Source: Azolla caroliniana
Lineage: Eukaryota; Plantae; Polypodiophyta
DNA: 64,000 nt
NCBI GenBank assembly: GCA_043228905.1
Contig: JBHGNT010000002.1
Coordinates: forward strand, 11,904,001-11,968,000
Direction of reading: 5' to 3'
Below the pieces are notes generated by a model. The model had not been told where the DNA came from and ran no database searches. It saw only the letters and a list, made by a program, of their open reading frames with translations. Below, one piece after another: positions 692 to 40,708 of the stretch; within the stretch, counting starts at the first letter, position 1, and each line of letters starts with the position of its first letter. The position numbers were made by a program, and so were the translations under genes.

Positions 692-1337
692 TGTCGTGAA
701 GAAAACCGTCCACAAGCGGAATTGGTGCACCAGAGCGTAGGAACCGGCTCTTCATGCACGTACGCCTTATGTTGTACGTAAGAGAGAATTAGGTACATAG
801 AAGATCCTAGGTAGGTAGATTCGGTAGGTAGGAAGTTAATGGGAAACGGCTCCTTTCTTGCCTATAAAAGGAGGGAGACGAGAAGGAGGAGGGGGGATCG
901 AAGATAGAGAGGACGAAGTGTTGTCGGGTTGTCGGCCGAAGGCTTCTCTCTCTTCCATACTCCGTAGCTTCTTTCTGTGCAGGTTTCCGGGAGGCTCGCG
1001 CTGCTCTGAGGAATGCCCGAGTGCTTCCGGTAGCACCTCCAACCTACTCCTTTCTTTCTGTGCGTTTGTGAACTGGCATCGGCATCTGTTCGCCGGCCTG
1101 TTCGGTTGTAACCGACTTCGTGCTTCTTGTTGTTTGTCTTTGTTAATATATATATACATACATTCATGTCTCTCTGTGTCGGTGTCCCACTCGCGTCTTT
1201 GTGTCGAAGGGTCGTGTCCCTGTGAATCTACGCTCGCATGTAGTGGGTCCCTTCCCTTCTCCTTTCTCTCTTGTTCTTTGGTACAAGACCCCCGAGGCCC
1301 CGCCTCATTCCACGCATCCGCGAGGAATACCTCGACA
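692..1337 (+). repeat. 5' LTR of element A
   Basis: TGTCGTGAAG...CCTCGACA, a direct repeat of 7008-7653 with about 15 substitutions, nearly all transitions. Confidence 0.97.
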
Positions 1338-1340
1338 TCT

Positions 1341-1358
1341 TGGTGAACCCGACGTGAA
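1341..1358 (+). promoter_or_regulatory. Primer-binding site complementary to tRNA-Trp
   Basis: TGGTGAACCCGACGTGAA lies 3 nt after the LTR and is the reverse complement of the plant cytosolic tRNA-Trp 3' end (TTCACGTCGGGTTCACCA, recalled from memory). Confidence 0.88.
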
Positions 1359-1380
1359 GGAGGCGGCAGAAGAGCAAAAG

Positions 1381-3506
1381 ATGAAGGGGTCGGATCTTGC
1401 GGAGGCCATGGCTTCAGCCGTGGATCGGATATTGAGCGCACGCGAGGGCACCGGCGCCCTCGACAGAGCCATTGAGGCGGTCGTCTGTACGATCGGCCGG
1501 TTCAGCGGAAAGGATGCCACGAAGTATTTGGCGTCCTACGGGGCAGAAATGCTGATGCGGGACATTCCGAAAGAGAGGCGTCTTGCCGGGTTCCCTCGAG
1601 TGGCGATGCCGAGCATCCATGCGGAGGTGCTCGAGGTGCGGGTGGAGAGCCGTACCTGGGAGGAGTTCGAAGGCCGACTCCTAGAAAAATACGGACTGGA
1701 CGACGCGCTCCGGCTTTCAAAACGGGACTTCATGGAATGGGTGAAGGCCCCCGGCAAGGGAAGAAACGCGTCGGCACTCCTCCGGGAGTTTGAAGAACGC
1801 TTTGCGCGCCTTTCGGCGCTTGACCGAACCATTCTGGATACGAGCCGGGTCCTACTGTTCGTCAAGTCGGTGGACGAGCGAGACCGGGATCAAGTTGGCT
1901 CCTTGCTGGAAACCGAAGACGGGCTGACGACCGACTGGGCTGCGGTTAAGAGAGTCTGTGGCCGTTTCGACAAACGGCAAGAATGGGTTGATAACGGGGC
2001 GGCCGGTGCGGGCTCTGTCACAGCAAGGAAGCTTGAACCGGCACCGCAAGGGCAAAGGGAAGAGACCAGGGAGTGGCTCGAAACCGGTTCGGCTTCGACC
2101 GGCATGGTCAATGGCTCATTCGGAGGAGCAGCGCTGGAGGAGTTGACGCGGGCGATAAAGGATCTCCAGATCGCCCAGGCTCGAAGGGAAGGCGGCGAAC
2201 CGGCTCGTTACCGACGGCCGGCAGCAGGGAACAGGTGCATGTGGTGCGACGAGGTCGGCCACATTCGGAAGGACTGCGGCGATTTCGCAGAGGCGTTGAG
2301 GAACCGGGTGGTGTACCTATGGGAAGGCCGGGTGCACGCCAGCGATACCAGAAGGGCCCTAAACCGGAACGACGGGCGAGGAGGTATGAAGAGACTGATG
2401 GAAGAGGCAGCGGCCCGACACGTGGAGGCCATCCACTACTCGGCGTCGGTCGGTATTCGGGTCGGGGGCAGCGAGGCCCGAAAGGAGAGCAAAGACGGAT
2501 TCTGGTCGGCAATGCTGGAAGGCCTCGCCGGTGCATGGCTGAGGAAAGATGAAGCGGACCGCACTGAGAGACGGGTCCGGGAAATAACCGGGTGGAGCGA
2601 CCCGGTTGAGGAGAAGACGGGCTTCGTAGAAGCCGCCTGCCGGAACTACGAGGCTCTGGTAGAAGACAAGCGAGTGGGGAAAGCCGGAGCGGCCGGGCCC
2701 TCACAAAGATACGAGCCCGATTCGGGCAACGACGGAACGAAGCCGGTGGATCCAGCGCGCAAGATAACCCCAAGAAGGGCGGATACCGACTGGGGACGGA
2801 AATAGAAAGGGCCACGGACCTGCAAAAGGTCCTAGAAGAACGGATCCTCGACAGCAAAGTGGAGCTGTCATTGCGGGTGATGCTAGGGATCGCCAAGAAG
2901 GAGTTCCACGACTCCATTGTGGACTTGGTAAAGCGGAAGAGGCTGTCGACGGAGACAGAACCAGAAAGACCGGTGGAGGTGCGGACGACGCACATCGACG
3001 ACATGGCGCTGGAAGATGAGTGGGCGGAGAGCCACTATTCGAGGCCACACTGGGCCCGAGCGACCACGGAGACCCCGGTGAAGATCGGAGATGTTCAGGA
3101 ACCGGTGGTGGCACTGGTGGACCACGGTTCGGAAATAAACCTGATGTCCATGGACTTCTACAAGAAGGGAAAATGGCCGATCAACACCAAGCACGGGTGG
3201 AAGATACGGGCGGCGACGCGCGCCACCGAGGAACTGCACGGGGCCAGCCCGAACGTGCGGGTCAAGATCGGCGACGTTGAGATTGACCAGCACTTCTTCG
3301 TGCAGGAGACGTCCTCGCACCCGGTCATATTAGGGGAACCATACATCACGGCGGCACGAATGGAGACCAAGGTGCTGGACAACGGTTCGGCCTACGCAAG
3401 GGTCAAAAGCCAGGACGGGCGCCATTCGGTCCAATTTCTGACGGTGCGGCCGAACCACGAGCGAAACCGCGAATCCCTCGGTGGCGAGAACCGAGAGGAT
3501 TTTTAG
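1381..3506 (+). pseudogene. gag-protease of element A, with one frameshift near 2715-2780
   Basis: ORFs 1201..2805 (zinc knuckle) and 2859..3506 (LVDHGSEINLM...VILGEP). The homolog at 60472-61636 reads through this junction in one frame. Confidence 0.88.
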
Positions 3507-3562
3507 AGAGGGCTGCCAAGGCGTGGGGCCGAGACAGTCCGGACACTCGGGAAAGACCCCAC
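3497..3562 (+). other. Putative -1 programmed ribosomal frameshift signal (G GAT TTT plus pseudoknot)
   Basis: The heptamer sits just before the gag-pro stop and the -1 frame is open into pol. Stem pairs are GGGCTG/CAGTCC and GTGGGG/CCCCAC. The cassette is conserved in the second copy at 60419-60481. Confidence 0.8.
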
Positions 3563-6500
3563 AACTGTACGATAGAACCGAAACCGAAGAAACCTTGTAC
3601 GATAGGTAGAAAATTTTGCTTCTCCAACAACGGAGGGTGTATGATAGTCGGCATCGTTGGCCGAGAAAAGGCAAGGGCGGAGGAGCGACTTCAAGCGTGC
3701 GGAGTTCTCGGCCCGGACGAGGAAATCAGCGGAGCCGTGGAGGCGGTCTCCTTCGACGACACCTTGGGGATGCTGAGGAAGATAGCCGGAGAAGACCTTA
3801 ACGAAGACCGGACGATACCAGTATGTTCCGAAGAGATGTACGAAGTCATCGCGAACTTCAGTCAGGGGCTCGGGTCGGATCGGACGGCCCGAGTTAGCAC
3901 AAAGTACAAGACTGTGGACCGAAAGGTAAGGCTAGTCACGGCACCCTTATCGGAGGGCAGCGAGTCCCGAATCAGAGGGGTTGCGTCGGACCCCAGTTTA
4001 CGAGATCCGTTCTGCATAGGACACACCTTCACCGACGGGATGCTCCGGGAGCTCAAGATCGGTGGGGGCGGGTTCCTACTGCCGGCGGAGGAAGACCGGT
4101 TTCGGAGAATTCTTGGAAGGCACGGGAAAGCCTTCGCATTCTCACCAGAAGAGATCGGGTGCGTAGACCCGACAATCATGGAGCCGATGGTGATATTCAC
4201 GGTACCGCATGTGCCGTGGAATCTCAAGCCGATTCCAGTACCGAGAGCTCACATCCCGAAGTTGATGGAGCTATTGAGGTAGAAAGTCGATATGGGCATT
4301 CTCAAACCGTCGAGTGCCCCATACTCGAACCGATGGTTTACCTTACCAAAGAAAAAAGGAACATTGCGCTTCATTCAAGACCTGCAGCCGGTCAATAGAG
4401 TGACCATTCGGAACGCAGGAATCGGACCAACCATAGATGAGTTCGCGGAGGCCTTCGCCGGAAGGTCGATTTACTCGGTCGGTGACCTGTACTCGGGGTA
4501 CGACTAGTTCCAGCTAGCCGTGGAGAGCAGAGACATTACGACGATGCGAACTCCCCTCGGCCTAGTGCGAATGTGTACCCTACCACAAGGAGGGACCAAC
4601 TCGGTGGCCCACATGGTGAATGCAATGAACAAGGTACTGAGGGATTGCATCCCGGACATCACCATGCCATTTCTAGACGACATCCCGATCAAGGGGTGCC
4701 CGGTGGAGGAGAAGGACGAGACACTCGGGCCGGACGGATGCCCGCGATTCGTGGCAACACACATCGATGACTGCGAGAAGGTGCTACAAAGGCTGGAGGT
4801 TGCAAAGCTCACCTTCTCCGGGGAGAAATCGGTCTTCGGGCAATCAGAAATCCTGGTGGTCGGACACCTATCTGGACCATATGGCCGGAAGCCGTCTCCG
4901 GCAAAAGTAGAAGCCATCTGCGCGATGAAGACCGACTGTAGCTCGGTTACGGAAGTTCGGAGGTTCCTGGGGGCGTGCGCATTCTACCACATATGGATCC
5001 CGCATTACGCCCACGTTGCGGAGCCGCTATACGGGTTGCTGAAGAAAGGGCGAAAATTCGAGTGGCAAGACGAGCACACGGAGTCGGTCCGGAAGCTGAA
5101 GGAAGCTCTTGCGGCAGCACCGGCGCTCCGGAAGGTTATCTACGAGAAGGGTACCCCGGTATACATAACGGTGGATACGAGTCCGACCGGGATCGGATGG
5201 GTCGTCAACCAAGAAGACGAGGACAGCATTCGGTTCCCGATCCGATTCGGCGCAAAGGTCCTCAGTGAGCGACAGCGAGGGTACGCCCAGGTTAAACGCG
5301 AACTCTGGGGTATCGTTTCGGCAGTAAAGGCCGACAAAGACTACCTGATCGGGACAGAAGTGATTATCGAGACGGATTGCCTGCCAATTCTCGGCATGGT
5401 CTCCGGATGCGCGACATGGGACCTAGCGATGCTCAGGTGGATAGCGTACATCAAGTCCTTGGACCCGGAAATACGACACATTTCCGGAAAGGACAACGCC
5501 ATGGCCGACATGCTTTCGAGGGCGAGGTTTGATGACGAGGGCGGCATGGTTTCGGAGGACGAAGAAGTCGGCGTGGACTTCTTCGAGGCGCCATACGTAA
5601 CGACGTATGGGGCGAGCACTCCGGCACTTAACGGCTTCGACGAGAGCAAGTACGACGGCGAGTGGCTACAGATCGGTGGTTTTTTGAGGACAATGACGCC
5701 GGATGCGTCATGGACGAGGGACGAGGCCAACCAGATCCGGAAGAAAGCATACCGATTCTTTCTCCGGGACGGATACTTATGGAAGCACCCGAAGAAGAGG
5801 AACGGCATCCCGCTCCGGGTGGTGGTGATGAAGGAAGAACAGGAGGAGCTGCTGACGGCCTACCACGACAGCCCTTGGGCTGGACACCATGGAACGTGGG
5901 CCACGTTCGAGAAGATAAAGGGGAAGTATTGGTGGCCGGGACTGTACCGGGACGTGCATCGGTTCGTGACAACTTGCGAGAGCTGTCAGATGCACTCCAT
6001 AGTCCGACATCGGGACGAGCTTCACCCTACGTACCCTCCGACCATCCACTTCAAATGGATGGTAGATCTGGTGACGATGCCGATGGGAGTAGGACAGATG
6101 CGGTATCTGGCCCTGGCTCGGGAAGATCTGACGAACCAGGTGGAAGGCCGAGCCCTTCAGAACAAAACGACCGCGGCCATATGTCGGTTCCTGATCGAGG
6201 ACGTGATATGCCGGTACGGGTGCGTCGGGAAGATCGTGGCTGATCGCGGGGAGTTGGACGCCGAAGAGGCCGAGAAGCTGTTCGACCGGCTAGGAGTCAA
6301 GCTCTCGCTTACCACTGCGTACAATCCGGAGGCAAATGGGAAGGTGGAGCGCGGACACAGACCGATCGTCAAGGCGTTAGTTCGGGCATGCGGAGGTCAA
6401 GTTGGGAACTGGCCACGGCTGCTGCCTTACGCATTATGGGCGGACCGAACTACGCACAGTTCGGTAACCGGATTCATGCCGGCAGAGCTCATGTTTGGGC

Positions 6501-6934
6501 AGAAGCCGATCATGCCGATGGAACGTACGATCTCCTCATGGGCAACCGTGGACTGGAAAGACGAGATGAGCCGGGAGGAACTGTTGGCGGCGCGCATACG
6601 ATAGCTCAAGCGAAGACCGGAGGATGTGGAGCAGGCTGCGGGGAAGCTTCGAGTGGCAAGGACGAGGAACAAAGCCCGGTTCGACCGAACGCACCGGCAC
6701 CGAGCAACACGGAAGTTCGCAAGAAGGTGGTTTGGGCCTTACGTGGTACAAAGCGCCAACGACAACGGGACGTACCATCTGGCTGAACTCGACGGCACGA
6801 GAATGGCGATACCGGTAGCTAGGAAGCGGATCAAAGCGTTCAAGAAGCGTCACGACGACGAGGCGGATCCGGTTAACCTGGACCGCGACGACGAACGATC
6901 CGAAACCAAGGAAGAACCGACGGGCGGGGAATAA
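3500..6934 (+). pseudogene. pol (RT-RNase H-integrase) of element A with three in-frame stops
   Basis: ORFs 3641..4282, 4292..4507, 4520..6604 and 6626..6934 share one frame and are separated by single TAG codons. Motifs: LPQG, FLDD, TVDTSPTGIG, H-H-C-C, VDL..ADRG..NGKVER. Confidence 0.93.
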
Positions 6935-7007
6935 AGACTGGACCGGTTTTCTCCGTCGCAACACAATTTGGCGCATGCCGGTGGATGCACGGTTAGGTGG
7001 GGGCGAA

Positions 7008-7653
7008 TGTCGTGAAGAAAACTGTCCACAAGCGGAATCGGTGCACCGGAGCGTAGGAACCGACTCTTCATGCACGTACGCCTTATGTTGTACGTAAGAG
7101 AGAATTAGGTACATAGAAGATCCTAGGTAGGTAGATTCGGTAGGTAGGAAGTTAATGGGAAACGGCTCCTTTCTTGCCTATGAAAGGAGGGAGACGAGAA
7201 GGAGGAGGGGGGATCGACGATAGAGAGGACGAAGTGCTGTCGGGTTGTCGGCCGAAGGCTTCTCTCTCTTCCATACTCCGTAGCTTCTTTCTGTGCAGGT
7301 TTCCGGGAGGCTCGCACTGCTCTGAGGAATGCCCGAGTGCTTCCGGTAGCACCTCCAACCTACTCCTTTCTTTCTGTGCGTTTGCAAACTGGCATCGGCA
7401 TCTGTTCGCCGGCTTGTTCGGTTGTAACTGACTTCGTGCTTCTTGTTGTTTGTCTTTGTTAATATATATATACATACATTCGTGTCTCTCTGTGTCGGTG
7501 TCCCACTCGCGTCTTTGTGTCGAAGGGTCGTGTCCCTGTGAATCTACGCTCGCACGTAGTGGGTCCCTTCCCTTCTCCTTTCTCTCTTGCTCTTCGGTAC
7601 AAGACCCCCGAGGCCCCGCCTCATTCCACGCATCCGCGAGGAATACCTCGACA
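7008..7653 (+). repeat. 3' LTR of element A
   Basis: Direct repeat of 692-1337, preceded by a PPT. Confidence 0.97.
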
Positions 7654-9054: not shown

Positions 9055-12000
9055 TGTTGGGATTACGGTCCCTCCGGATGGGATGGTCGGATGTCCGGGA
9101 ATCGGGAATGAAGACCCGAATGAGGAGTAACCGGTATCGGAGCCGGATGACGAAGACCCGGTTTCGGATCCGGATGATGAAGACCCCGGCTACGGAGCCG
9201 GATGACGAATGTACCCGGAGAGAGAGATCCGGATGTGGGGACATATTTGTGAATATGTTTGCCAAGGGCCCTTGAGGCTATATTTGTAAATAGCCCGAAA
9301 GTCATATGTGTATAAATATGACTTAGGGCAAACAGTTTTATGTTGTTGCTCATTTTTTTTGTTTTCCACTCAGAGGGAGTGAAGTGAGAGAGAGAGAGAG
9401 AGGAAGGAAGAGGTCGACGCCTCTGTGTAATACCGCCGCCTGTGGCGAGGACAGCGAGCTCAAGGTCGTCGCCTTGCAGCTCGCCATTGTACATTCCCTG
9501 CGTATAGTGATAGTTGGAGTCTTGCACTCCCGTGGTTTTTCCCGTCTAGGGTTTTCCACGCTAAACCCTGTGCATTCGAGTCTCTCTCTGTTTTTCGATT
9601 TTCTGCTGCATTGCTTCGTGTTTCCTCGGTTGTGGCCGGGAGAGGTGAAGGTCTTGTAGGCGTCAATATCCTAACAATCTGGTATCAGAGCGACTTCAGT
9701 GCAGAAAATGGAAGGCGGCAGCAGCGGGCAGCCGGTGATGATGGTGCTGAATGTGCAGAACTACGCCGACTGGAAGATAAAGATGGAGGATCTGCTAATT
9801 GTTCGGGACCTGTATGAACCTATCAACAGGTCGGAAATACCCAAGGGGGTACTTAAGACGGAATGGAGGCTTCTGAACCGGAAAGCCGTTGCAACCATTC
9901 GGCAATACGTCGACGTGAGCGTTCTACAACATGTGGCGAACGACACCAACGCATATGAGATGTGGCAGAAGCTGTCAGGCCTCTACGAGAGGAAGAATGC
10001 GTTGAACCGGACCTCCCTGATGAGGAAGATAGTGAACCTCAAGTACCGGGACGGCGAGAGTATGGTGGAACACGTAAGCACGTTCATGGGAATCGTGAAC
10101 CAGCTTGCGGCGATCAAGTTCCCGTTGGAGGATGCAATGCAAGCCATCATCCTGATGTGTACATTGCCGGAAAGCTGGGAGAACTTGGTGGTGACTCTGA
10201 GCACCTCCTGCACCGAAGATAACTTGTCCCTACAAACGGTAAAGACAAGCATTTTGAACGAAGAAGCGCGTCGGAGAGATAAAGAACCGGCCTCCGATCC
10301 GAAGATGCTGTTTACCGAATCGGATCGGGGAAGACAACGGAACCGGAGTCCGCAAAGACGGGAGAAGTCGGGGACCCGGTCGCAGTCAAGAGGAAGGCCC
10401 ACATGCTTCCACTGTGGGAAGCCGGGGCACTTCCGAAAGAATTGTCGGCATTACCGAAAAGACAACGGAGCCGACGACACCGATTTGAAGAAGTCTTCGG
10501 AACGGAACGGTGCTTACCGGGGAGCCACGGACCGGAATGGTTCGGATCGGCGAGGGCAGGACCGGAAAGGAACGACGACACTCGCGGCAAGTGAAGAGGA
10601 GATCATGCTCATCACCGAAGAAGGTGAACTAAACATTGCCGGCGATGAGACTACCTGGGTGGTCGATTCCGGAGCGTCGTTCCACCTGACCCCGGAAAGA
10701 AGATACTTCTCATCCTACACAACCGGTAAGCATGGCTGTGTTCGGATGGGAAATGAAGGTACGTGCCGGATTGCCGGCATAGGAGACGTGTGGTTGACAA
10801 CCTCGACCGGATGCAAAATGTTGCTGAAGGATGTCCGACACGTTCCGGAGGTTCGTTTGAACCTGATTTCGGCCGGGAGGCTAGACGATGAAGGCTACAC
10901 AGGTAGCATCCGGAACGGCGTAATGAAGTTCAGCAAGGAGAGCCTGATAGTGGCTCGGGCCCGAAAAGTCAACACATTGTACCTTATGAATGCCTGGTTG
11001 TGTCCGGAGGAGTTGAACGTGGCAGCCGACACTGCCGATGAGCTGTGGCACAAGAGACTGTGCCACATGAGTGAGAAGGGGATGAAGAGGCTTGCAGAAG
11101 ACAACCTTATTCCAGTGAAGCATGTGCACCTGGAGAAGTGCACCGAATGCCTGGCCGGTAAGCAGAACCGAACCTCCTTTCACTCAAGGCCACCAACGAG
11201 ACGTAGCGCACCATTGGAGTTGGTGCACACTGACGTGTGTCAAGTAGAAACGAAGTCACATGGCGGAGCCCAGTACTTCGTGACATTCATTGATGACCAC
11301 AGCCGGAAGCTGTGGACGGCACCGTTGAAGACAAAGGACCAAGTGTTGTGCGTCTTCAAAGAACTCCACGCGAGAGTGGAAAGGGAATCCGGCAAGAAGC
11401 TGAAAGCGATACGAGCGGATAACGGAGGAGAATACCGAGGGCAGTTCGAGGAGTATTGTCGCTCGAAGGGAATCCGGCTCGAGTTTACTGTGCCAAAGAC
11501 GCCGGAACTGAACGAGCTGGCCGAGAGGATGAACCGGACCATAATGGAGAGGGTCCGGAGTATGCTGGCGCATGCGAAATTACCCAAGGAGTTTTGGGCT
11601 GAGGCAATGTCGACGGCGACATACGTGATAAACAGATCACCCTCAGTACCTTTGGACGGAGACACGCCGCAGAGAGTGTGGACCGGAAGGGAAGTATCCT
11701 ACCGGCATCTGAAGGTGTTTGGGTGTCTCGTATATGTGCATGTGGCAAAGGACCGGAGAGGAAAGCTAGATCCAAAGACCCGGCCATGCATATTCCTCGG
11801 TTACGGCGATGACGAGTTCGGCTACCGAGTATGGGACCCGGTCGACAAAAAGATATTCCGGAGTCGTGATATCATCTTCATGGAGGACAAGACACTCGCC
11901 GACTGGGAGTCGGAGAAGAAGATGAAGAGCTCCAAGTCGACCGGTGAGGATCAACTCTACGAGGAGCAGTCCCGACCGGCAAGGGACCGGTTAGCACTCG

Positions 12001-14468
12001 AGGATCCGGCCGAGGACGGTGAAGAAACAGAACCGACCGAGGAAGATGAAACTGATACCGGAACCGGCCCCGATCCCGAAATGGATTCGGATGAAGAGGA
12101 AACGGAGGAGCCGGTTACCGAAGCTCCGGAACGGAGATATCCTCTAAGAGAGAGAAGGGCCCCCCGGAGATTTCCGGAACCAGAGCACGTGCTGCTAACC
12201 GACGAAGGGGAGCCGGAGAGTTTTGAAGAAGCAAAGCTTAACACCCATAGCCGCAGGTGGTTAAGTGCCATGCAGGAGGAGATGGATTCCCTGCATGAGA
12301 ACCACACATATGAACTTGTGGAGTTGCCGAAAGGAAAGCGGGCACTTCGAAACAAGTGGGTGTTCAAGCTGAAACCGGGAGATGCCGGAAACCCCCCGAG
12401 ATACAAAGCCAGGATCGTGGTGAAGGGGTTCCAGCAGAAGAAGGGCGTCGACTTCGACGAGATATTTGCCCCGGTAGTGAAGATGACCTCCATCCGGACG
12501 GTGCTGAGCATAGCGGCAAGCATGGACCTCGAGGTAGAACAGATGGACGTGAAGACGGCATTCCTTCACGGTGACCTCGAAGAAGAGATCTACATGCAGC
12601 AACCGGAAGGATTCGAGAAGAAAGGGAAGGAGCACCTGGTATGCCGGTTGAAGAAGAGCCTTTACGGACTGAAGCAGGCTCCCCGGCAATGGTACCGGAA
12701 GTTCGACTCTTTCATGACCGACGAAGGTTACCACAAAACGCAATCCGATCACTGCGTGTTTGTGAAGAAGTTCGAAGGAGGAGACTTTCTAATACTCCTC
12801 CTGTACGTGGACGACATGTTGATCGTCGGACGGGACCAGGTCAAGATACGGATGCTGAAGAAAGCGCTTCACCCAACCTTCTCAATGAAGGACCTGGGTC
12901 CGGCGAGGCAAATACTAGGGATGCACATCATCCGAGACCGGAAGAAGAAGCAGTTGTGGCTGTCACAGGAGAAGTACGTGACAAAGGTGCTTCATCGGTT
13001 CAACATGTCGGAAGCAAGACCGGTCGGGTCAACCCTCCCGGCAAACTGCAAGTTGTCCAGCAAGCAAAGCCCCAAGACAAAGGCTGAGAAGGAGGACATG
13101 ATGAAAGTACCATATGCCTCGGCCGTCGGAAGCTTGATGTACGCAATGGTGTGTACAAGACCAGACATAGGATATGCAGTCGGAGTGGTGAGCTGGTACA
13201 TGAGCAATCCCGGCAAAGAGCACTGGAACGCGGCCAAGTGGATACTCCGATACCTGAAGGGCACGGCAAACGTGTGCCTCCGATTCGGCTCCGGTAAGCC
13301 CGAACTCGACGGCTTTACCGATTCGGATATGTCGGCTGATGCAGATACCAACCGGTCCACATCAGGGTATGTGATGACGTATGCAGGGGGAGTTGTTTCG
13401 TGGCAGTCGAGGCTGCAGAAGACGGTTGCGTTGTCAACCACGGAGGCGGAGTACATGGCGGCTGTTGAAGCCGGCAAGGAAATAATATGGATGAAGGACT
13501 TCATTAGAGAGCTCGGTATCCGGCAGGAGGAGTACCGACTCTACTGCGATAGTCAGAGTGCCATCCACCTTGCGAAGAACGCGGCCTATCACTCCCGGAC
13601 GAAGCACATCCAGCGAAGATATCACTGGATCCGGGAAAGGATAGAAGACCAGGAGTTCATGCTGACGAAGATCCACACGGACGAGAACGGGTCAGATATG
13701 CTGACCAAAGTGCTCACACCCGACAAGCTGGAAGCGTGCCGGAAGAGGGTCGGACTGGAAAGACATCCCATGCCGAAGTGAAGGGGGAGTTTGTTGGGAT
13801 TACGGTCCCTCCGGATGGGATGGTCGGATGTCCGGGAATCGGGAATGAAGACCCGAATGAGGAGTAACCGGTATCGGAGCCGGATGACGAAGACCCGGTT
13901 TCGGATCCGGATGATGAAGACCCCGGCTACGGAGCCGGATGATGAAGACCCCGGCTACGGAGCCGGATGATGAAGACCCCGGCTACGGAGCCGGATGACG
14001 AATGTACCCGGAGAGAGAGATCCGGATGCGGGGACATATTTGTGAATATGTTTGCCAAGGGCCCTTGAGGCTATATTTGTAAATAGCCCGAAAGTCATAT
14101 GTGTATAAATATGACTTAGGGCAAACAGTTTTATGTTGTTGCTCATTTTTTTGTTTTCCACTCAGAGGGAGTGAAGTGAGAGAGAGAGAGAGAGGAAGGA
14201 AGAGGTCGACGCCTCTGTGTAATACCGCCGCCTGTGGCGAGGACAGCGAGCTCAAGGTCGTCGCCTTGCAGCTCGCCATTGTACATTCCCTGCGTATAGT
14301 GATAGTTGGAGTCTTGCACTCCCGTGGTTTTTCCCGTCTAGGGTTTTCCACGCTAAACCCTGTGCATTCGAGTCTCTCTCTGTTTTTCGATTTTCTGCTG
14401 CATTGATTCGTGTTTCCTCGGTTGTGGCCGGGAGAGGTGAAGGTCTTGTAAGCGTCAATATCCTAACA
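9055..14468 (+). mobile_element. Full-length Ty1/Copia element B (Tnt1/Tork-like)
   Basis: LTRs 9055-9676 and 13792-14468, TSD TTTTG on both sides, tRNA-iMet PBS TGGTATCAGAGC at 9680-9691, and PPT GAAGGGGGAG just before 13792. Confidence 0.98.
9708..13781 (+). CDS. Copia gag-pol polyprotein (uninterrupted)
   Basis: CFHCGKPGHFRKNC, WVVDSGAS, WHKRLCH, integrase D-D-E, LYVDD, RNase H (TDSD, EAEY, CDSQ). The first ATG is at 9708. Confidence 0.96.
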   Translation: MEGGSSGQPVMMVLNVQNYADWKIKMEDLLIVRDLYEPINRSEIPKGVLKTEWRLLNRKAVATIRQYVDVSVLQHVANDTNAYEMWQKLSGLYERKNALNRTSLMRKIVNLKYRDGESMVEHVSTFMGIVNQLAAIKFPLEDAMQAIILMCTLPESWENLVVTLSTSCTEDNLSLQTVKTSILNEEARRRDKEPASDPKMLFTESDRGRQRNRSPQRREKSGTRSQSRGRPTCFHCGKPGHFRKNCRHYRKDNGADDTDLKKSSERNGAYRGATDRNGSDRRGQDRKGTTTLAASEEEIMLITEEGELNIAGDETTWVVDSGASFHLTPERRYFSSYTTGKHGCVRMGNEGTCRIAGIGDVWLTTSTGCKMLLKDVRHVPEVRLNLISAGRLDDEGYTGSIRNGVMKFSKESLIVARARKVNTLYLMNAWLCPEELNVAADTADELWHKRLCHMSEKGMKRLAEDNLIPVKHVHLEKCTECLAGKQNRTSFHSRPPTRRSAPLELVHTDVCQVETKSHGGAQYFVTFIDDHSRKLWTAPLKTKDQVLCVFKELHARVERESGKKLKAIRADNGGEYRGQFEEYCRSKGIRLEFTVPKTPELNELAERMNRTIMERVRSMLAHAKLPKEFWAEAMSTATYVINRSPSVPLDGDTPQRVWTGREVSYRHLKVFGCLVYVHVAKDRRGKLDPKTRPCIFLGYGDDEFGYRVWDPVDKKIFRSRDIIFMEDKTLADWESEKKMKSSKSTGEDQLYEEQSRPARDRLALEDPAEDGEETEPTEEDETDTGTGPDPEMDSDEEETEEPVTEAPERRYPLRERRAPRRFPEPEHVLLTDEGEPESFEEAKLNTHSRRWLSAMQEEMDSLHENHTYELVELPKGKRALRNKWVFKLKPGDAGNPPRYKARIVVKGFQQKKGVDFDEIFAPVVKMTSIRTVLSIAASMDLEVEQMDVKTAFLHGDLEEEIYMQQPEGFEKKGKEHLVCRLKKSLYGLKQAPRQWYRKFDSFMTDEGYHKTQSDHCVFVKKFEGGDFLILLLYVDDMLIVGRDQVKIRMLKKALHPTFSMKDLGPARQILGMHIIRDRKKKQLWLSQEKYVTKVLHRFNMSEARPVGSTLPANCKLSSKQSPKTKAEKEDMMKVPYASAVGSLMYAMVCTRPDIGYAVGVVSWYMSNPGKEHWNAAKWILRYLKGTANVCLRFGSGKPELDGFTDSDMSADADTNRSTSGYVMTYAGGVVSWQSRLQKTVALSTTEAEYMAAVEAGKEIIWMKDFIRELGIRQEEYRLYCDSQSAIHLAKNAAYHSRTKHIQRRYHWIRERIEDQEFMLTKIHTDENGSDMLTKVLTPDKLEACRKRVGLERHPMPK

Positions 14469-17012: not shown

Positions 17013-20000
17013 TGTTGGGATTACGGTCCCTTCGCATGGGATGGTCGGATATCGGAGATGAATGCCGACAAGCCCGGTTTCGGTTTTCGGATCCGGATGA
17101 CGAAGACCCCGGTTTCGGTACCGGATGACGAATGTACCCGGAGAGCGATCCGGATACAGGGACATATCCGTGAATATGTTCGCTATGGGCCCCTGAGGCT
17201 ACAGTTGTAAATAGCCCAAAGTCATATAAGTATAAATATGACTTAGGGCAAACAGTTTTGTTGTTGCCTCTCATTTTTCTGTTTTTTTTCCACTCAAGAG
17301 GAGTGAAGTGTAAGCAGCCGTGAGAGAGAGAGAGAGAGAGATAGAGCGCGAGAGACGAAGAGGTAGACGCCTCTGTGTATTTCCGCCGCCTGTGGCGAGG
17401 ACAGCGAGCTCAAGGTCGTCGCCTTGCAGCTCGCCATTGTATACTTCTCTGTATAGTGTTGGGTTGGAGTCTTGTACTCCCGTGGTTTTTCCCGTCTGGG
17501 TTTTCCACGTTAATCCCTGTGTACTCGCGTTCTTGTTTTTCGTGTGGTTCCTATTTTCTGCTGCATTGATCCGCGATTACTCGGTTGTGGCCGAGGGAAG
17601 AAGGTGAATCGAAGCGTCTATTCCTTACAAACTGGTATCAGAGCGACTGTTGCAGAAAATGGAAGGCGGCGGCAGCGGGCAGCCGGGGATGATGGTGCTG
17701 AATGCACAGAATTACGCCGACTGGAAGATCAAGATGGAGGATCTCCTGATTGTTCGGGACCTGTACGAACCGATTGACAGGTCGGAAATACCGAAGGGGG
17801 TACTTGAGTCGGAGTGGAAGCTCCTGAACCGGAAAGCCGTAGCGACGATCCGACAATATGTCGATGTAAGCGTCCTACAACATGTGGCGAACGACACCAA
17901 CGCATATGAGATGTGGAAGAAGCTGTCGGGCCTCTACGAGAGGAAGAATGCGTTGAACCGGACCTCCCTGATGAGGAAGATAGTGAATCTCAAGTACCGG
18001 GACGGCGAGAGTATGGTGGAACACGTAAGCACGTTCATGGGATTCGTGAATCAGCTTGCAGCGATCAAGTTCCCGTTGGAGGATGCAATGCAAGCCATCA
18101 TTCTGATGTGTACATTGCCGGAAAGCTGGGAGAACTTGGTGGTGACTCTCAGCACCTCCTGCACCGAAGATAACTTGTCCCTACAAACGGTAAAGACAAG
18201 TATTCTGAACGAAGAAGCGCGTCGGAGAGATAAGGAACCGGCCTCCGACCCGAAGATGTTGTTTACCGAATCGGATCGGGGAAGACAATGGAACCGGAGT
18301 CCGCAAAGACGGGAGAAGTCGGGGACCCGGTCGCAGTCAAAAGGAAGGCCCACATGCTTCCACTGTGGGAAGCCGGGACACTTCCGAAAGAATTGTCGGC
18401 ATTACCGAAAAGACAATGGAACCGACAACACCGATTCGAAGAAGTCACCGGAGAGAAACGGTGCATACCGGGGAGCCACGGACCGGAATGGTTCGGATCG
18501 GCGAGGGCAGGACCGAAAAGGAACGACGGCACTCGCGGCAAGTGAAGAGGAGATCATGCTCATCACCGAAGAAGGTGAACTAAACATTGCCGGCGATGAG
18601 ACGACCTGGGTGGTCGATTCCGGAGCATCGTTCCACCTGACCCCGGAGAGAAGATACTTCTCATCCTACACAGCCGGCGAGCATGGCTGTGTTTGGATGG
18701 GAAACGAAGGTACGTGCCGGATTGCCGGCATAGGAGACGTGTGGTTGACAACCCCGACCGGATGCAAAATGCTGCTGAAGAATGTCCGACACGTTCCGGA
18801 GGTCCGACTGAACCTGATTTCGGCCGGGAGGCTAGATGATGAAGGCTACACGGGTAGCATCCGGAACGGTGTCATGAAGTTCAGCAAGGGGAGCTTGATA
18901 GTGGCTCGGGCCCGGAAGGTCAACACACTGTACCTGATGAATGCCCGGTTATGTCCGGAAGAGCTGAATGTGGCAGCCGACACTGCCGGTGAGCTGTGGC
19001 ACAAAAGACTGTGCCACATGAGTGAGAAGGGGATGAAGAGGCTTGCAGAAGACAACCTTATTCCGGTGAAGCATGTGCACCTGGAGAAGTGCACCGACTG
19101 CCTGGCCGGTAAGCAGAACCGAACCTCCTTCCACTCAAGGCCACCGACGAGACGTAGCGCACCATTGGAGTTGGTGCACACTGATGTGTGTCAGGTAGAA
19201 ACGAAGTCACATGGCGGAGCCCAGTACTTCGTAACATTCATAGATGACCACAGCCGGAAGCTGTGGACGGCACCGTTGAAGACAAAGGATCAAGTATTGT
19301 CCGTCTTCAAAGAACTCCACGCGAGAGTGGAAAGGGAATCCGGCAAGAAGCTGAAAGCGATACGAGCGGATAACGGAGGAGAATACCGAGGGCAGTTCGC
19401 GGAGTATTGTCGTTCGATGGGAATCCGGCTCGAGTTCACTGTGCCGAAGACGCCGGAACTGAACGGGCTGGCCGAGAGGATGAACCGGACCATAATGGAG
19501 AGGGTCCGGAGTATGCTGGCACATGCGAAATTACCCAAGGGATTTTGGGCTGAGGCAATGTCGACGGCGACATACGTGATAAACAGATCACCCTCAGTAC
19601 CTTTGGACGGAGACACGCCACAGAGAGTGTGGACCGGTAAGGAAGTGTCCTACTGGCATCTGAAGGTATTCGGGTGTCTCGCATTTGTGCATGTGGCAAA
19701 GGACCGGAGAGGAAAGCTAGATCCAAAGACCCGGCCATGCATATTCCTCGGTTACGGCGATGACGAGTTCGGCTACCGAGTATGGGACCCGGTCGACAGG
19801 AAGATATTCAGGAGTCGAGATATCATCTTCATGGAGGACAAGTCACTCGCCGACTGGGAGTCGGAGAAGAAGATGAAGAGCTCCAAGTCGACCGGTGAGG
19901 ATAAACTCTACGAGGAGCAGTCCCGACCGGCAAGGGACCGGTTAGCACTCGAGGACCCGGCCGAAGACGGTGAAGAAACAGAACCGGCCGAAGAAGATGA

Positions 20001-22362
20001 AAATGATACCGGAACCGGCCCCGATCCCGAAATGGATTCGGATGAAGAAGAAGAATCGGAAGAACCGGTTACCGAAGCTCCCGAACGGAGATATCCTCTA
20101 AGAGAGAGGAGAGCCCCCTGGAGATTTCCGGAACCAGAGCACGTGCTGCTAACCGACGAGGGGGAGCCGGAGAGCTTTGAAGAAGCAAAGCATGACACCC
20201 AGAGCCGCAGGTGGTTGAGTGCCATGCAGGACGAGATGGATTCCCTGCATGAGAACCTCACATATGAACTTGTGGAGTTGCCGAAAGGAAAGCGGGCACT
20301 TCGAAACAAGTGGGTGTTCAAGCTGAAACCGGGAGATGCCGGAAACCCCCCGAGATATAAAGCCAGGATCGTGGTGAAGGGGTTTCAGCAGAAGAAGGGC
20401 GTCGACTTCGACGAGATATTTGCCCCGGTAGTGAAGATGACCTCCATCCGGACGGTGCTGAGCATAGCGGCAAGCATGGACCTCGAGGTAGAACAGATGG
20501 ACGTGAAGACGGCATTCCTTCACGGTGACCTCGAAGAAGAGATTTACATGCAGCAACCGGAAGGATTCGAGAAGAAAGGGAAGGAGCACCTGGTATGCCG
20601 GTTGAAGAAGAGCCTTTACGGACTGAAGCAGGCTCCCCGGCAATGGTACCGGAAGTTCGACTCCTTCATGACCGACGAAGGGTACCTCAAAACGCAGTCC
20701 GACCACTGCGCGTTTGTGAAGAAATTCGAAGGAGGAGACTTTCTAATACTCCTCCTGTACGTGGACGACATGTTGATCGTCGGACGGGACCAGGTCAAGA
20801 TACGGATGCTGAAGAAGGCTCTTCACCGAACCTTCTCAATGAAGGACCTGGGTCCGGCGAGGCAAATACTAGGGATGCACATCATCCGGGACCGGAAGAA
20901 GAAGCAGTTGTGGCTGTCACAGGAGAAGTACGTGACGAAGGTGCTTCACCGGTTCAACATGTCGGAAGCAAGACCGGTCGGATCGACCCTCCCGGCAAAC
21001 TCCAAGCTGTCCAGCAAGCAAAGTCCCAAGACAAAGGCTGAAAAGGAGGATATGATGAAAGTGCCGTATGCCTCAGCCGTCGGGAGCTTGATGTACGCCA
21101 TGGTGTGTACGAGACCGGACATAGGATATGCAGTCGGAGTGGTGAGCCGGTACATGAGCAATCCCGGCAAAGAGCATTGGAACGCGGTCAAGTGGATACT
21201 CCGATACCTGAAGGGCACAGCGAATGTGTGCCTCCGATTCGGCTCCGGTAAACCCGAACTCGACGGTTTCACCGATTCGGATATGTCGGCTGATGCAGAC
21301 ACCAGCCGGTCCACATCAGGGTATGTGATGACGTATGCAGGGGGAGCTGTTTCATGGCAGTCGAGGCTGCAGAAGACGGTTGCGTTGTCAACCACGGAGG
21401 CGGAGTACATGGCGGCTGTTGAAGCCGGCAAGGAAATAATATGGATGAAGGACTTCATTAGAGAGCTCGGTATCCAACAGGAGGAGTACCGACTCTACTG
21501 TGACAGTCAGAGTGCAATCCACCTTGCGAAGAACGCGGCCTATCACTCCCGGACGAAGCACATCCAGCGAAGATATCACTGGATCCGGGAAAGGATAGAA
21601 GACAAGGAGTTCGTGCTGACAAAGATCCACACGGACGAGAACGGGTCGGATATGCTGACCAAGGTCCTCACACCCGACAAGCTGGAAGCATGCCGGAAGA
21701 GGGTCGGATTGGAGAGACATCCCATGCCGAAGTGAAGGGGGAGTTTGTTGGGATTACGGTCCCTTCGCATGGGATGGTCGGATATCGGAGATGAATGCCG
21801 ACAAGCCCGGTTTCGGTTTTCGGATCCGGATGACGAAGACCCCGGTTTCGGTACCGGATGACGAATGTACCCGGAGAGCGATCCGGATACAGGGACATAT
21901 CCGTGAATATGTTCGCTATGGGCCCCTGAGGCTACAGTTGTAAATAGCCCAAAGTCATATAAGTATAAATATGACTTAGGGCAAACAGTTTTGTTGTTGC
22001 CTCTCATTTTTCTGTTTTTTTTCCACTCAAGAGGAGTGAAGTGTAAGCAGCCGTGAGAGAGAGAGAGAGAGAGATAGAGCGCGAGAGACGAAGAGGTAGA
22101 CGCCTTTGTGTATTTCCGCCGCCTGTGGCGAGGACAGCGAGCTCAAGGTCGTCGCCTTGCAGCTCGCCATTGTATACTTCTCTGTATAGTGTTGGGTTGG
22201 AGTCTTGTACTCCCGTGGTTTTTCCCGTCTGGGTTTTCCACGTTAATCCCTGTGTACTCGCGTTCTTGTTTTTCGTGTGGTTCCTATTTTCTGCTGCATT
22301 GATCCGCGATTACTCGGTTGTGGCCGAGGGAAGAAGGTGAATCGAAGCGTCTATTCCTTACA
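17013..22362 (+). mobile_element. Full-length Ty1/Copia element C (same family as B), very recent
   Basis: 617-bp LTRs 17013-17629 and 21746-22362 with one substitution seen, TSD CGTCC on both sides, PBS TGGTATCAGAGC at 17633-17644, and a PPT. Confidence 0.98.
17659..21735 (+). CDS. Copia gag-pol polyprotein (uninterrupted)
   Basis: All Copia catalytic motifs are present and the protein is near-identical to 9708-13781. Confidence 0.96.
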   Translation: MEGGGSGQPGMMVLNAQNYADWKIKMEDLLIVRDLYEPIDRSEIPKGVLESEWKLLNRKAVATIRQYVDVSVLQHVANDTNAYEMWKKLSGLYERKNALNRTSLMRKIVNLKYRDGESMVEHVSTFMGFVNQLAAIKFPLEDAMQAIILMCTLPESWENLVVTLSTSCTEDNLSLQTVKTSILNEEARRRDKEPASDPKMLFTESDRGRQWNRSPQRREKSGTRSQSKGRPTCFHCGKPGHFRKNCRHYRKDNGTDNTDSKKSPERNGAYRGATDRNGSDRRGQDRKGTTALAASEEEIMLITEEGELNIAGDETTWVVDSGASFHLTPERRYFSSYTAGEHGCVWMGNEGTCRIAGIGDVWLTTPTGCKMLLKNVRHVPEVRLNLISAGRLDDEGYTGSIRNGVMKFSKGSLIVARARKVNTLYLMNARLCPEELNVAADTAGELWHKRLCHMSEKGMKRLAEDNLIPVKHVHLEKCTDCLAGKQNRTSFHSRPPTRRSAPLELVHTDVCQVETKSHGGAQYFVTFIDDHSRKLWTAPLKTKDQVLSVFKELHARVERESGKKLKAIRADNGGEYRGQFAEYCRSMGIRLEFTVPKTPELNGLAERMNRTIMERVRSMLAHAKLPKGFWAEAMSTATYVINRSPSVPLDGDTPQRVWTGKEVSYWHLKVFGCLAFVHVAKDRRGKLDPKTRPCIFLGYGDDEFGYRVWDPVDRKIFRSRDIIFMEDKSLADWESEKKMKSSKSTGEDKLYEEQSRPARDRLALEDPAEDGEETEPAEEDENDTGTGPDPEMDSDEEEESEEPVTEAPERRYPLRERRAPWRFPEPEHVLLTDEGEPESFEEAKHDTQSRRWLSAMQDEMDSLHENLTYELVELPKGKRALRNKWVFKLKPGDAGNPPRYKARIVVKGFQQKKGVDFDEIFAPVVKMTSIRTVLSIAASMDLEVEQMDVKTAFLHGDLEEEIYMQQPEGFEKKGKEHLVCRLKKSLYGLKQAPRQWYRKFDSFMTDEGYLKTQSDHCAFVKKFEGGDFLILLLYVDDMLIVGRDQVKIRMLKKALHRTFSMKDLGPARQILGMHIIRDRKKKQLWLSQEKYVTKVLHRFNMSEARPVGSTLPANSKLSSKQSPKTKAEKEDMMKVPYASAVGSLMYAMVCTRPDIGYAVGVVSRYMSNPGKEHWNAVKWILRYLKGTANVCLRFGSGKPELDGFTDSDMSADADTSRSTSGYVMTYAGGAVSWQSRLQKTVALSTTEAEYMAAVEAGKEIIWMKDFIRELGIQQEEYRLYCDSQSAIHLAKNAAYHSRTKHIQRRYHWIRERIEDKEFVLTKIHTDENGSDMLTKVLTPDKLEACRKRVGLERHPMPK

Positions 22363-25347: not shown

Positions 25348-26067
25348 AAATGTAGGGCATGCCACCTTTGACTTGATGGCGAACAACGTGACCTGTCTAG
25401 ATAGCCTTGGGCGAAGTGCCCAAGTCCCCATCTCCTTATAGCAATTGCAATGTTTGGTGTCCCGCTTCAATGCGGCTCTTGAACCCCTCCTCAATCCATG
25501 TTGTCATGTTGCTAGTGTCATGATATGGCAAGACTCAAACCCATGACCTTATGTTACATGGGTCAAACTCTTGACCATTACACTATCTATTGTAATACGT
25601 GCAATATTATTTTATTTAGGTTTTACTATAGAAAATTAATGTATATTCCAGATTTCTCTGGAACATTCTAGAAGCTTCGGGACTACTCCTGAGAACACTA
25701 TAAAAGGAGGCACAAGGCATTATTTCGAACCAAATCGGTTCAATGCCAGCCTTAAGCCTCCTAGCCTTCCTTGTATATTCTTCTCACATAATATATTGTT
25801 GTCATCACCATTTTCTCTCCCACTCTCACTCTCACTCTCTCACTCTCTCTTCTCTCGAGTGTTCTACACCCTCTATTACTCTTAGTACTAATTTCTTCTC
25901 AGTCTTTGTACTATTCCTGACAATTTGAACTGATTTCCCCTCCTTCCGTCTCCTCCTCTTCCTTTTATCTTCTTACATATCCCCTTTTTTCCAGTCTTCT
26001 TTCCGGTTTCCCTCATCTTCTTACCCCTTTTTCCCTTCATACTAATCCTCTTATCCTCCCTAGTAAA

Positions 26068-27197
26068 ATGGAATACCAATCTGTTTTCTCGAAGCTCTAG
26101 TGCTTAAAAGAGAAATTTGTAGCACTAGAACAAGAAAATCATCGTTTGTTGGGGGATCTTCAACAAATAGCGCTGGAAAAACAACAACAACAACCACACG
26201 GGGAGCTGAAGTTACGTGTACAACAACTTGAAGCGACTATTGTATCACTACAACAACAAGGATCAAGCACTCAAGGGATTCACAAAGAACCCAAGATCGG
26301 TCTTCCTGCAAAATTTGATGGGACCCGATCACAATTTAGAGGTTTTCTGAATCAGGTACGTTTAGTGATTCAAATGCATCCTTCTCGATAGCCCACCGAT
26401 GCATCACGAGTGGGACTAGCAGGCACTCTACTTAGTGGCTCAGCATTGGCATGGTTCACTCCGTTGTTAGAAAAGGAATCTCCATTACTAAACAATTTTG
26501 CAGAATTTATAAGTGAGTTAAAGCCTGTTTTGGAGATACTAACAACATAAGGACAACAATCAACAAAATCCGACGATTACGCCAAGGTGATCGTCTAGCC
26601 TCCGCATACGCTATAGATTTTCGCCTATTCGCTGCTGATATCCCTTGGCATGATCAAGCATTGATGGAGCAATTTCTTTATGGTTTACGCAACGATGTCA
26701 AGGATTTACTCTTGACCTTCCCCGAAGAACCAAAGTCATTAACAAGAGCAATCAATCGTACGGTGAGATGCGACAACCGCCTTTTCGAATGACGTTCGGA
26801 ATGGAAATTCTAGATGCCAAGGGCAAGATCAGAGCCCACATATGCCTTAGTGGTAGCGAAACCTTTTCCAAGGGAGTCATATAATGCGTCTCCAATGAAA
26901 ACTCCGACTCCAATGGAGATTGACACTACACGTCGTCACGGACCATTATCGGAACAAGAAAAGTAGTGACGTCGAGCAAATCGACTATGTCTTTATTGCA
27001 GTGGACTAGGGCATATTGCAGTAAATTGTCCCCATAGGCCAAGAAGACAGGTAAACCAAATAGTTGCTAGTTCTAATTGTACTAAACCCGGGTCTATTTC
27101 AGTAGGAATATCTGATAGCCCTAATAGTACTAATAGCCCAAATCTAGCGAACAAATTTGATGTCCTTAGTTAGTTAGAAGAAGAGTTAAACGACTAA
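26068..27197 (+). pseudogene. Chromovirus gag
   Basis: EPKIGLPAKFDGTR, PTPMEID, CLYCSGLGHIAVNC, with multiple stops and frameshifts. Confidence 0.88.
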
Positions 27198-30100: not shown

Positions 30101-30746
30101 GTGGTGTGTATTTGAAACCCCAGTGTTACCCACAAATCCTTGCGCAGAGGATCGTTTGGAGCGGTTACGCAAGATACAAGCAGATTTATCTACTCATCTA
30201 CAACAAGCTCAACAAACACACAAGGTTTACGTGGATCGTCATCGGCTTCCATACAGTTTTAACATTGGAGATCGGGTATGGCTACTACGACGACACATCA
30301 AGACTACTCGCCCATGCGAGAAGTTGGATTATCGGCGATTAGATCCTTTCCGTATTATCGGAAAGATTAATGATGTCGCTTTTCGTCTCGATCTACCCTT
30401 GCATCTTCGCATACATCCGATGTTTCATAGTTCTCTCCTCGAACCCTATCAAGACAGCACCATCCTAGGACGTATTCCACAACCTCCACCCCCAATCGAA
30501 CTTGAAGATGGACCTGAGTACGAGGTTGCCATCATCCTCGATTCCAAGATTGTTCGCAACAAGCTCTACTATTTAGTCGATTGGCTAGGATATAGTCCCA
30601 ACGAGCGTACTTGGGAACCAATAGAGAATGTGACCAATGTTCGTGCTCTTCTTGAAGACTTCCATCGTCAATATGCAGATAAAACGGGCCCTCAATCCAA
30701 AACGACTCGTGACACTTGTCGTTTTAAAGGGGGGATAGTGTCATGA
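27185..30746 (+). pseudogene. Chromovirus pol (PR-RT-RH-IN-chromodomain)
   Basis: LLDSGAN, VDYRGLN, IYLDD, EADAS, ISDRG, NGQAER, and chromodomain EYEVAIILDSK..YYLVDWLGYSPNERTWEP. The frame is disrupted. Confidence 0.94.
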
Positions 30747-31198
30747 TATGTCAAGACTCAAACCCATGACCTTATGTTACATGGGTTGAGCTCTTGACCA
30801 TTACACTATCTATTGTAATATATAAAATATTATTTTATTTAGGTTTTACTATAGAAAATTAATGTATATTCCAGATTTCTCTGGAACACTCTAGAAGCTT
30901 CAGGACTACTCCTGAGAACACTAGAAAAGGAGGCACAAGGCATTATTTCGAACCAAATCGGTTCAATGCCCGTCTTAAGCCTCCTAGCCATCCTCGTATA
31001 TTCCTCTCACATAATATATCGTTGTCATCATCATTTTCTCTCCCTCGATGTCTCACTCACTCTCTCTCTCTCTTCTCTCAAGTGTTCTACACCCTCTATT
31101 CCTCTTAGTACTAATATTCCTCTCTTAGTACTAATTTCTTCTCTGTCTCAGTACTATTCCTGACAGCTAGTTGGTTCTTGTCAAGGATAGTGGAAAAT

Positions 31199-36191: not shown

Positions 36192-37033
36192 ATGACATCT
36201 AGCAGTAGAGCTCCTAGCAATCGCGAGAGAGAGAACAACAAAAGAAGGGAGAGAAGACGGCGTGCCATAGCCGCACGGATCTTCACGGGGCTGCGACAGT
36301 TTGGTAACTATAAGCTACCCAAGCATTGCGACAACAACGAGGTCCTAAAGGCTCTGTGTAGAGAAGCAGGGTGGAATGTAGAAGAAGACGGGACTACTTT
36401 CAAGAAATTAGGAAGGGTAGCCCTCGCCCCAACCAATTTCTCCTTCAGCCAAGATATTGTGGTGCAGCAGCAGCATAATAATAATAATAATAATAATAAT
36501 AATCATAGTACACATGTACATCAGCAGCAAATGGAGTACAATGTGAATGGCGAGACTGCGTGTGATACCGTCGTCGTCACATCTATAGGGCCCTCCTCCT
36601 CCTCCTCCTCCTCCATACACGGTCTCCCTTGTCTCAAGATGATGAGAGGAGGAGGAGGATCATCATCATTTAGTGCCCCAGTAACACCTCCTTTAAGCTC
36701 TCCAACTCGACTTAATCCTAAATCCAAGCTACCTTATGATGGCATCCCAGATCTAGCACAAGATTTAGCTATTCCTAAGGTTTATCCAGGTCGAATTTGC
36801 CATCATAACCTTAACTCATTTTCTGTACATCAACAGGATTGTATCAAGAGAGGATTATCTACTATTGCGGCCACCACCACCACCACTACTCAAACTGCTA
36901 CTTCACTCGCATTCCCAAAATATCACCATCAGGATTACCCTTCTGAAGATCCTCTGGAGAACAACAGTTCTAGTAACATTAACAATAACTCTATTATTAA
37001 GCATGATTCTAAACCTTTTAATTTATCCTTGGC

Positions 37034-37064
<31 letters not shown>

Positions 37065-40652: not shown

Positions 40653-40655
40653 AGC

Positions 40656-40698
<43 letters not shown>

Positions 40699-40708
40699 AC
40701 ATACCTTT

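Follow-up and report, generated by a model that had tools for sequence, protein, structure and literature searches.

Plant Ty3/Gypsy retrotransposons have been described that keep gag and protease apart from reverse transcriptase (RT), RNase H and integrase. In the part of the REXdb survey considered here (PMC6317226), a separate gag-pro ORF prevails in Retand, by way of a single stop codon (49%), and in Ogre, by way of a spacer or intron (35%); the gag-pro/RT splits given there are only a stop (Retand and some Ogre elements) or a spacer (Ogre), and overlapping ORFs are given only at the gag/protease border (Tcn1, Selgy and SIRE). For the Phygy lineage, the same part of the survey enters the ORF organisation as 'ND' and gives no recoding signal. 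Shift sites of the G_GA type are used by umbra- and dianthoviruses, according to the section of PMC5009743 that deals with them, and the part of PMC5006619 considered here holds no confirmation of a pro/pol frameshift in the Dictyostelium element Skipper.

Here we describe an Azolla retrotransposon with the protease at the end of the gag frame and pol in an overlapping frame. Comparison of its relatives establishes how the frames are laid out and shows that the junction has a conserved heptamer, a spacer of fixed length and two stems in which changes are compensatory.

Retroelements in the window

The window, a stretch of 64,000 nucleotides of Azolla caroliniana contig JBHGNT010000002.1, carries on its forward strand an LTR element of 6,962 bp at 692-7653 (copy 1). 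The 5' LTR (TG...CA, 646 bp, 692-1337) is 97.5% identical to the 3' LTR (7008-7653), which is preceded by a purine-rich tract at 6990-7007. The 17-nt primer binding site, TGGTGAACCCGACGTGA at 1341-1357, is conserved across related loci, being identical in 36 of the 37 that match a PBS pattern, with a single change in the remaining one; its presumed match is tRNA-Trp, and nothing on the motif was found in open-licence papers. The gag-protease ORF runs from 1354 to 3506, with a DUF4100 region (Pfam) ahead of a retropepsin domain and a TAG stop at 3504-3506, and pol follows in the -1 frame (3503-6934), where Pfam places RT, RNase H and integrase after a linker of about 125 codons and reports no chromodomain, aRH or extra ORF. 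LTRs with domains in the order gag (DUF4100), protease, RT, RNase H and integrase are those of a Ty3/Gypsy element. The flanks read ACGG and ATGG, with one mismatch and for this one element only, which we infer to be a 4-bp NCGN target duplication in which one C has become T.

A frame change near 2718-2727 breaks the gag-protease ORF of copy 1, the intact 717-aa relative P0002 aligning with it in two frames, and pol is interrupted by stops at 4280, 4505 and 6602. The -1 frame is open for 259 codons, which take in the linker and the first part of RT, up to the stop at 4280, and the intact pol of one relative (L004) aligns with that of copy 1 in a single frame at 88.8%. Intact pol ORFs of the family have about 1150 codons and end shortly before the LTR or the contig end. 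Named homologues come from Physcomitrium, Riccia and Adiantum, the nearest being P. patens predicted proteins at 51-67%. Copy 1 is a decayed Ty3/Gypsy element of the non-chromoviral kind and fits the Phygy lineage.

A second, more decayed element of the same lineage (copy 2) lies on the reverse strand at 56390-62241; its protease DNA is 71% identical to that of copy 1, its -1 frame stops after 51 codons, and no LTR pair was found for it. Both window copies are decayed. Within the second element, a 336-bp piece of RT/RNase H-linker DNA is present as four tandem repeats (57902-59240). The window also holds two Ty1/Copia elements (9055-14468 and 17013-22362) with one uninterrupted ORF each, of 1368 and 1375 codons, the LTRs of the latter being 99.8% alike, a decayed Gypsy element with a chromodomain (25513-31133; repeats of about 400 bp, 92% alike), and two host genes, for a BES1/BZR1 transcription factor (36114-37613, forward) and a PORR-domain protein (39432-40706, reverse), which mark the host as a plant.

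The domain immediately 5' of the junction (3063-3440, forward) is predicted to fold as a retropepsin. Its Pfam matches are weak and under the cut-off; its structural model (pLDDT 79.5) matched the Ddi1 RVP domain in Foldseek (E 1.6e-6), as well as the XMRV, HIV and EIAV proteases. The active-site motif is D-H-G instead of D-T/S-G (3120-3128), and the surrounding DHGSEIN is conserved enough to act as a metagenome scan pattern.

The cassette in the two window copies

At the end of the gag-pro frame of copy 1 lies the heptamer G_GAU_UUU (3497-3503), followed by a 6-nt spacer that starts with the gag-pro stop (3504-3509). Beyond it are the 5' strand of stem 1 (3510-3517, with GGGCTG at 3510-3515), the loop strand of stem 2 (GTGGGG, 3523-3528), the 3' strand of stem 1 (3533-3540, with CAGTCC at 3535-3540) and the 3' strand of stem 2 (CCCCAC, 3557-3562). 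Stem 1 is an 8-bp register (3510-17/3533-40), 7 of the 8 being paired in copy 1. The cassette of copy 2 occupies 60419-60481 of the reverse strand: a heptamer at 60481-60475, then TAA, a 6-nt spacer, stem 1 formed by GGACTATT and AATAGTCC (60468-60461/60445-60438) and stem 2 by TGGGG and CCCCA (60454-60450/60423-60419). The motif GGATTTTTAR has two matches only in the window, these two cassettes.

A sequence-only reading of this DNA had placed such a cassette in both copies, with a compensatory G-C to A-T change in the stem. All of its motifs were located where it had put them, and the change is real (G3515-C3535 in copy 1, A-T in copy 2) and accompanied by a second one, C3517-G3533 against T-A. 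When folded singly over 79 nt, neither copy was better than its shuffles (z -0.03 and -1.57), and evidence beyond chance must therefore come from the family. Rfam gave no meaningful match.

Frame layout across the family

Relatives were collected by a metagenome scan, of which the best 80 of 184 loci were kept, and as 120 listed protein homologues (414-2000 aa) among 240 found, comprising 90 contig-called ORFs and 30 named gene models. The loci are largely from a single series of assemblies. At 85% identity, the 52 cassettes for which upstream DNA is available collapse to 28 families; family analyses used 24 of these, L030, L036, L061 and L078 being dropped as damaged or without RT on the contig. 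The two prokaryote genome loci found, L081 in a cyanobacterial MAG and L082 in a Streptomyces assembly, are probably plant DNA contamination. No relative was found in a search of a viral collection, and a search from the distant protein P0219 found only P0217 and did not reach fungal relatives.

Among the 62 loci that reach RT (of the best 80 of 184), pol is in the -1 frame and open from the stop in 57, open in +1 in 2 and interrupted in 3. In none of the 62 is it open in frame 0 behind the gag-pro stop, so the Retand-type layout, with pol in frame behind a single stop, was not found. Chance decay was rejected because the break lies at the same place in 57 loci, and stop-codon readthrough was ruled out as well, pol never being in frame and the identity of the stop being variable. 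Two loci, L021 and L071, pin the shift to the heptamer, as their pol frame is closed 3 nt 5' of it.

The protein set agrees in its C-termini: of the 90 contig-called homologues listed, 67 end in DF, GF or NF, 19 in xF plus five residues and 2 in VF plus one (88/90), DF, GF and NF being what X_XXU_UUY sites encode; the other 2 stop short, and the longest has 899 aa. Endings of the DF/GF/NF type are also present in several relatives at 37-45% identity. In one distant contig ORF (P0169, 44% identity, a single sequence) protease runs into pol in one frame, and this represents either a fused lineage or a one-off indel.

The heptamer is in frame in 70 of the best 80 of 184 loci, with variants G_GAU_UUC and G_GGU_UUU in the family, and is replaced by AG_GTT_TTT in 2. 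The remaining 8 lack an in-frame heptamer (in three it is out of frame, one has A_GAT_TTT instead and in four none was seen). The codon before the site specifies nine different amino acids, and its third position is G in 24/24 families; the Asp codon of the site is GAT 21 times and never GAC, the background ratio being 144:78. Any of TAA, TAG and TGA can serve as the gag-pro stop, which lies directly 3' of the site in 19 of the 24 families; in L054, L076 and L079 it lies 15 nt 3' of an unchanged heptamer. Because the stop varies in identity and has moved by 15 nt in these three families, it is the site that matters and not the stop. We note that in these three, and in P. patens and Adiantum proteins ending in DF plus five residues, the stop falls inside or at the edge of stem 1. 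With an in-frame X_XXY_YYZ heptamer (G_GA allowed), a spacer within 5-9 nt, a 3' structure established by comparison and an open -1 frame, the junction has the components of a canonical -1 signal.

Conservation of the two stems

The structure alignment comprises 46 of the 53 distinct cassettes; L005, L030, L036, L045, L046, L061 and L078 were left out, several of them with damaged stems, and this omission raises the paired fraction. No knot was found in L030 and L036. From the site to stem 1 the alignment is gap-free save for two rows, and the 6-nt spacer is fixed in length and free in sequence in 44 of the 46 aligned sequences (3-14 parsimony changes per column). Within these 46 sequences, 97.6% of the 368 cells of stem 1 are paired and 6 of its 8 pairs have two-sided changes; none of 500 shuffles was as high, and slid registers gave 22-44%. 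Mapped on a protease DNA tree, stem 1 underwent 43 changes, of which 37 end paired, compared with a null of 0.40.

Stem 2 was scored without alignment because it moves between codon registers, its 3' strand occupying all three across families. In windows that were picked after inspection of the data, the pairing score was 16.3 with a family's own partner and 13.7 with the partners of other families (0/20000), and windows further 3' gave 8.9-9.8. Resampling of synonymous codons equalled the observed pairing in 0 of 2000 cases for stem 1 and likewise for stem 2. The 3' strand lies 11-16 nt after stem 1 in 24/24 families; in several of them stem 2 has 4-5 bp only, and its gap to stem 1 is 0-5 nt. 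L075 and L081 form the same topology from unrelated stem sequence, the full cassette of L081 having a different, 11-bp stem.

The family data (frames, heptamer and both stems) support the proposal of the sequence-only reading, a covarying -1 frameshift pseudoknot at the protease/RT junction. Neither of the sequence findings that it had named as speaking against it, intact copies with protease and RT in one frame and unconserved stems, was borne out by the family data.

A branch with pol in the +1/-2 frame

Two loci, L053 (2836-2905) and L060 (2498-2567), have AG_GUU_UUU, a 5-nt spacer, an intact knot and pol in the +1/-2 frame. Both read CAG GTT TTT, with stem 1 five bases downstream, and their pol sequences are 81% identical. 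They group together (SH-aLRT 100), nested beside -1 elements (91), in a quick, midpoint-rooted tree of 25 pol sequences. They have 0 or 5 codons in the -1 frame before it closes, and an open +1/-2 frame of 1152 and 1099 codons; with 0 stops in the linker from the site on, and 47 of 83 differences at third positions, the linker evolves as coding sequence. An assembly error at the L053 site was ruled out because contigs from two further runs span it without gaps and with 0 and 1 differences. In RNA run X6 one read fell on L053 and in X8 three did; none of them crossed the site.

We give an even chance to the proposal that this one branch switched from -1 to -2 frameshifting, through a change from GAU to GUU and the loss of one spacer base, with the pseudoknot kept. 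Arteriviruses allow an A at the -2 position of their site. PRRSV, in the part of its description considered here, shifts -2 on GG_GUU_UUU with a stop in the -1 frame (PMC4937337); the nsp2TF -2/-1 site is similar to that of L053 and L060 in its G_GUU_UUU, in a -1 frame that in our loci closes at once or within 5 codons and in a long -2 product, and differs in relying on a protein complex and not on an RNA structure, and in that the base at -2 is A in L053 and L060. Lin et al., in the portion relevant here (PMC3458567), found that -2 shifting on U6A constructs has its optimum with spacers 1-2 nt shorter than those best for -1, and the spacer of L053 and L060 is 1 nt shorter than in their -1 relatives.

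Alternatively, ribosomes might gain access to pol of this branch through a +1 slip on the U run, through reinitiation or through splicing of the RNA at CAG|GT; together we assign these routes somewhat less than even odds. In their favour, the frame alone cannot tell +1 from -2, and re-pairing of GUU on AGG in the P site would be poor. UUU_U is present in L060, whereas L053 has UUU_G, a poor +1 site; pol-frame AUGs occur 77 and 17 nt before the stop, but share no position. These routes would also have to accommodate a knot that is retained one base closer and a linker that is coding from the site onward. If the -2 proposal is true, RT and integrase of this branch would depend on a -2 shift that occurs naturally and is driven by a pseudoknot, and evolution would have provided a test of the mRNA-tension model, according to which the length of the spacer determines how far the ribosome slips.

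Discussion

We consider programmed -1 frameshifting driven by an H-type pseudoknot to be the best reading of the junction, with a probability of about 0.88 on the comparative evidence. Gag and protease would be translated in one frame ending at G_GAU_UUU, with pol starting in the -1 frame. A predicted H-type pseudoknot six bases downstream, if it folds in the cell, would stall the ribosome, and tRNA-Asp and tRNA-Phe might then slip in tandem. Most ribosomes would stop and release Gag-PR, and a minority would slip back one base at the heptamer to produce Gag-PR-RT-RH-IN; protease would therefore be made 1:1 with Gag, and RT and integrase would be rationed.

The route known from Ogre, in which the gag-pro stop is spliced out with an intron so that protease becomes continuous with pol, would turn the structure into a regulator of splicing. 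It has the Ogre precedent itself (PMC6317226, in the part considered here), the CAG|GT at the site of the +1/-2 branch and gene models from P. patens, Riccia and Adiantum that join protease to pol. Of the 30 named gene models, however, 22 have no ending at the site, and many make the join, apparently by predicted introns, at differing points that disagree with one another, which suggests that such models are annotation artefacts. Nor is there a conserved donor: no GT position less than 45 nt or so from the site is shared by more than 4 of 24 families; the GT at -53 (10/24 families) sits in protease-frame coding sequence. The linker is open in exactly one frame in 57 loci; a non-coding spacer with splice sites, as in Ogre, was not found, the linker being open and coding with no shared GT donor. 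No splice joints at the junction were listed in 417 RNA reads of relatives from three polyA runs (mostly 80-95% alike, on both strands, with a depth of 8-20 in the junction bin and about 12% of each run read), a sampling in which a minor isoform would be missed. We regard splicing as very unlikely. Separate translation of pol, by internal initiation or by reinitiation after the stop, with the structure serving as an initiation or packaging signal, is less likely still. It would draw on the stop that directly follows the site in most families and on the pol-frame AUG close to the site in some copies, but the first such AUG is unconserved, lying anywhere from 2 to 326 nt after the stop among -1 loci. 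Moreover, the heptamer stayed fixed in L054, L076 and L079 though the stop moved 15 nt into the stem, and the invariant third-position G would be left unexplained.

A different kind of doubt concerns the stimulator: the -1 shift may be real and be promoted by a hairpin or kissing loop instead of a simple H-type pseudoknot. The minimum-energy fold of copy 1 has a 3-bp helix inside the loop, and both the short stem 2 of some families (4-5 bp) and its gap of 0-5 nt to stem 1 would be compatible with such a structure. Some families could form such an inner 3-bp helix, yet it is missing where stem 1 extends (L054, L060 and L075), and stem 2 covaries and keeps its place after stem 1 in all 24 families. 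We consider this alternative improbable, though it carries more weight than splicing or separate translation.

If -1 frameshifting is the correct reading, the cassette supplies an expression strategy for a retrotransposon lineage of mosses, liverworts and ferns whose layout REXdb gives as 'ND'. It would also offer a compact nuclear-encoded plant frameshift cassette in about two dozen natural variants, and the control of slip size would become directly testable with one pseudoknot that occurs in a -1 and a putative -2 version. No published account of the cassette was found in open-licence papers. The mechanism as such is known; its place, its host lineage and its putative -2 derivative are undescribed in the open-licence literature searched.

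Copy 1 may share a tRNA-Trp primer binding site with Phygy. It is further similar to Phygy, as far as the part of REXdb considered here describes it (PMC6317226), in its putative 4-bp NCGN target duplication, its lack of a chromodomain, a coding region that fills the interior and its P. patens relatives, and is shorter than the P. patens elements (6,962 bp compared with 7,656-9,968 bp). With Retand and Ogre of the Tat clade it has in common that GAG-PROT is apart from RT-RH-INT; the family described here has overlapping -1 frames with TAA, TAG or TGA as the stop, whereas Retand has a single in-frame stop and Ogre a spacer spliced as an intron (same part of PMC6317226), and Pfam reported no aRH domain in copy 1. 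Since Retand and Ogre keep gag-pro apart in this way, plants already offer precedents for protease synthesis at a 1:1 ratio to Gag. The novelty suggested by the sequence-only reading would lie in the frameshift route between protease and pol, of which no description was found in the open-licence literature searched, and not in the gag-pro/pol split as such.

The use of G_GAU_UUU by plant ribosomes is familiar from the umbravirus PEMV-2 and the dianthovirus RCNMV (PMC5009743, in its section on these viruses), which agrees with the earlier attribution of a functional site to these groups, and PEMV-2 similarly has its stop just after the heptamer. Their stimulator is a stem-loop with long-distance pairing, in contrast to the cassette described here, with both stems within 66 nt. 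Avian alpharetroviruses (RSV/ASLV) likewise encode protease with Gag, reach pol by a -1 shift and use a pseudoknot as stimulator, and differ, in the portions of PMC12789967 and PMC5009743 considered here, in being retroviruses, in their heptamer and, in RSV, in a three-stem knot. The alpharetrovirus-like layout proposed from the sequence, gag-pro followed by a -1 shift into pol, therefore stands, but the split is not confined to alpharetroviruses, as Retand and Ogre share it (PMC6317226, same part). The likeness is likely a convergence, because the lineages are distant. The cassette would represent a third way, besides a single stop codon and an intron, by which Gypsy elements of plants keep RT and integrase at lower levels than Gag-protease, and this points to repeated convergence with the alpharetroviruses.
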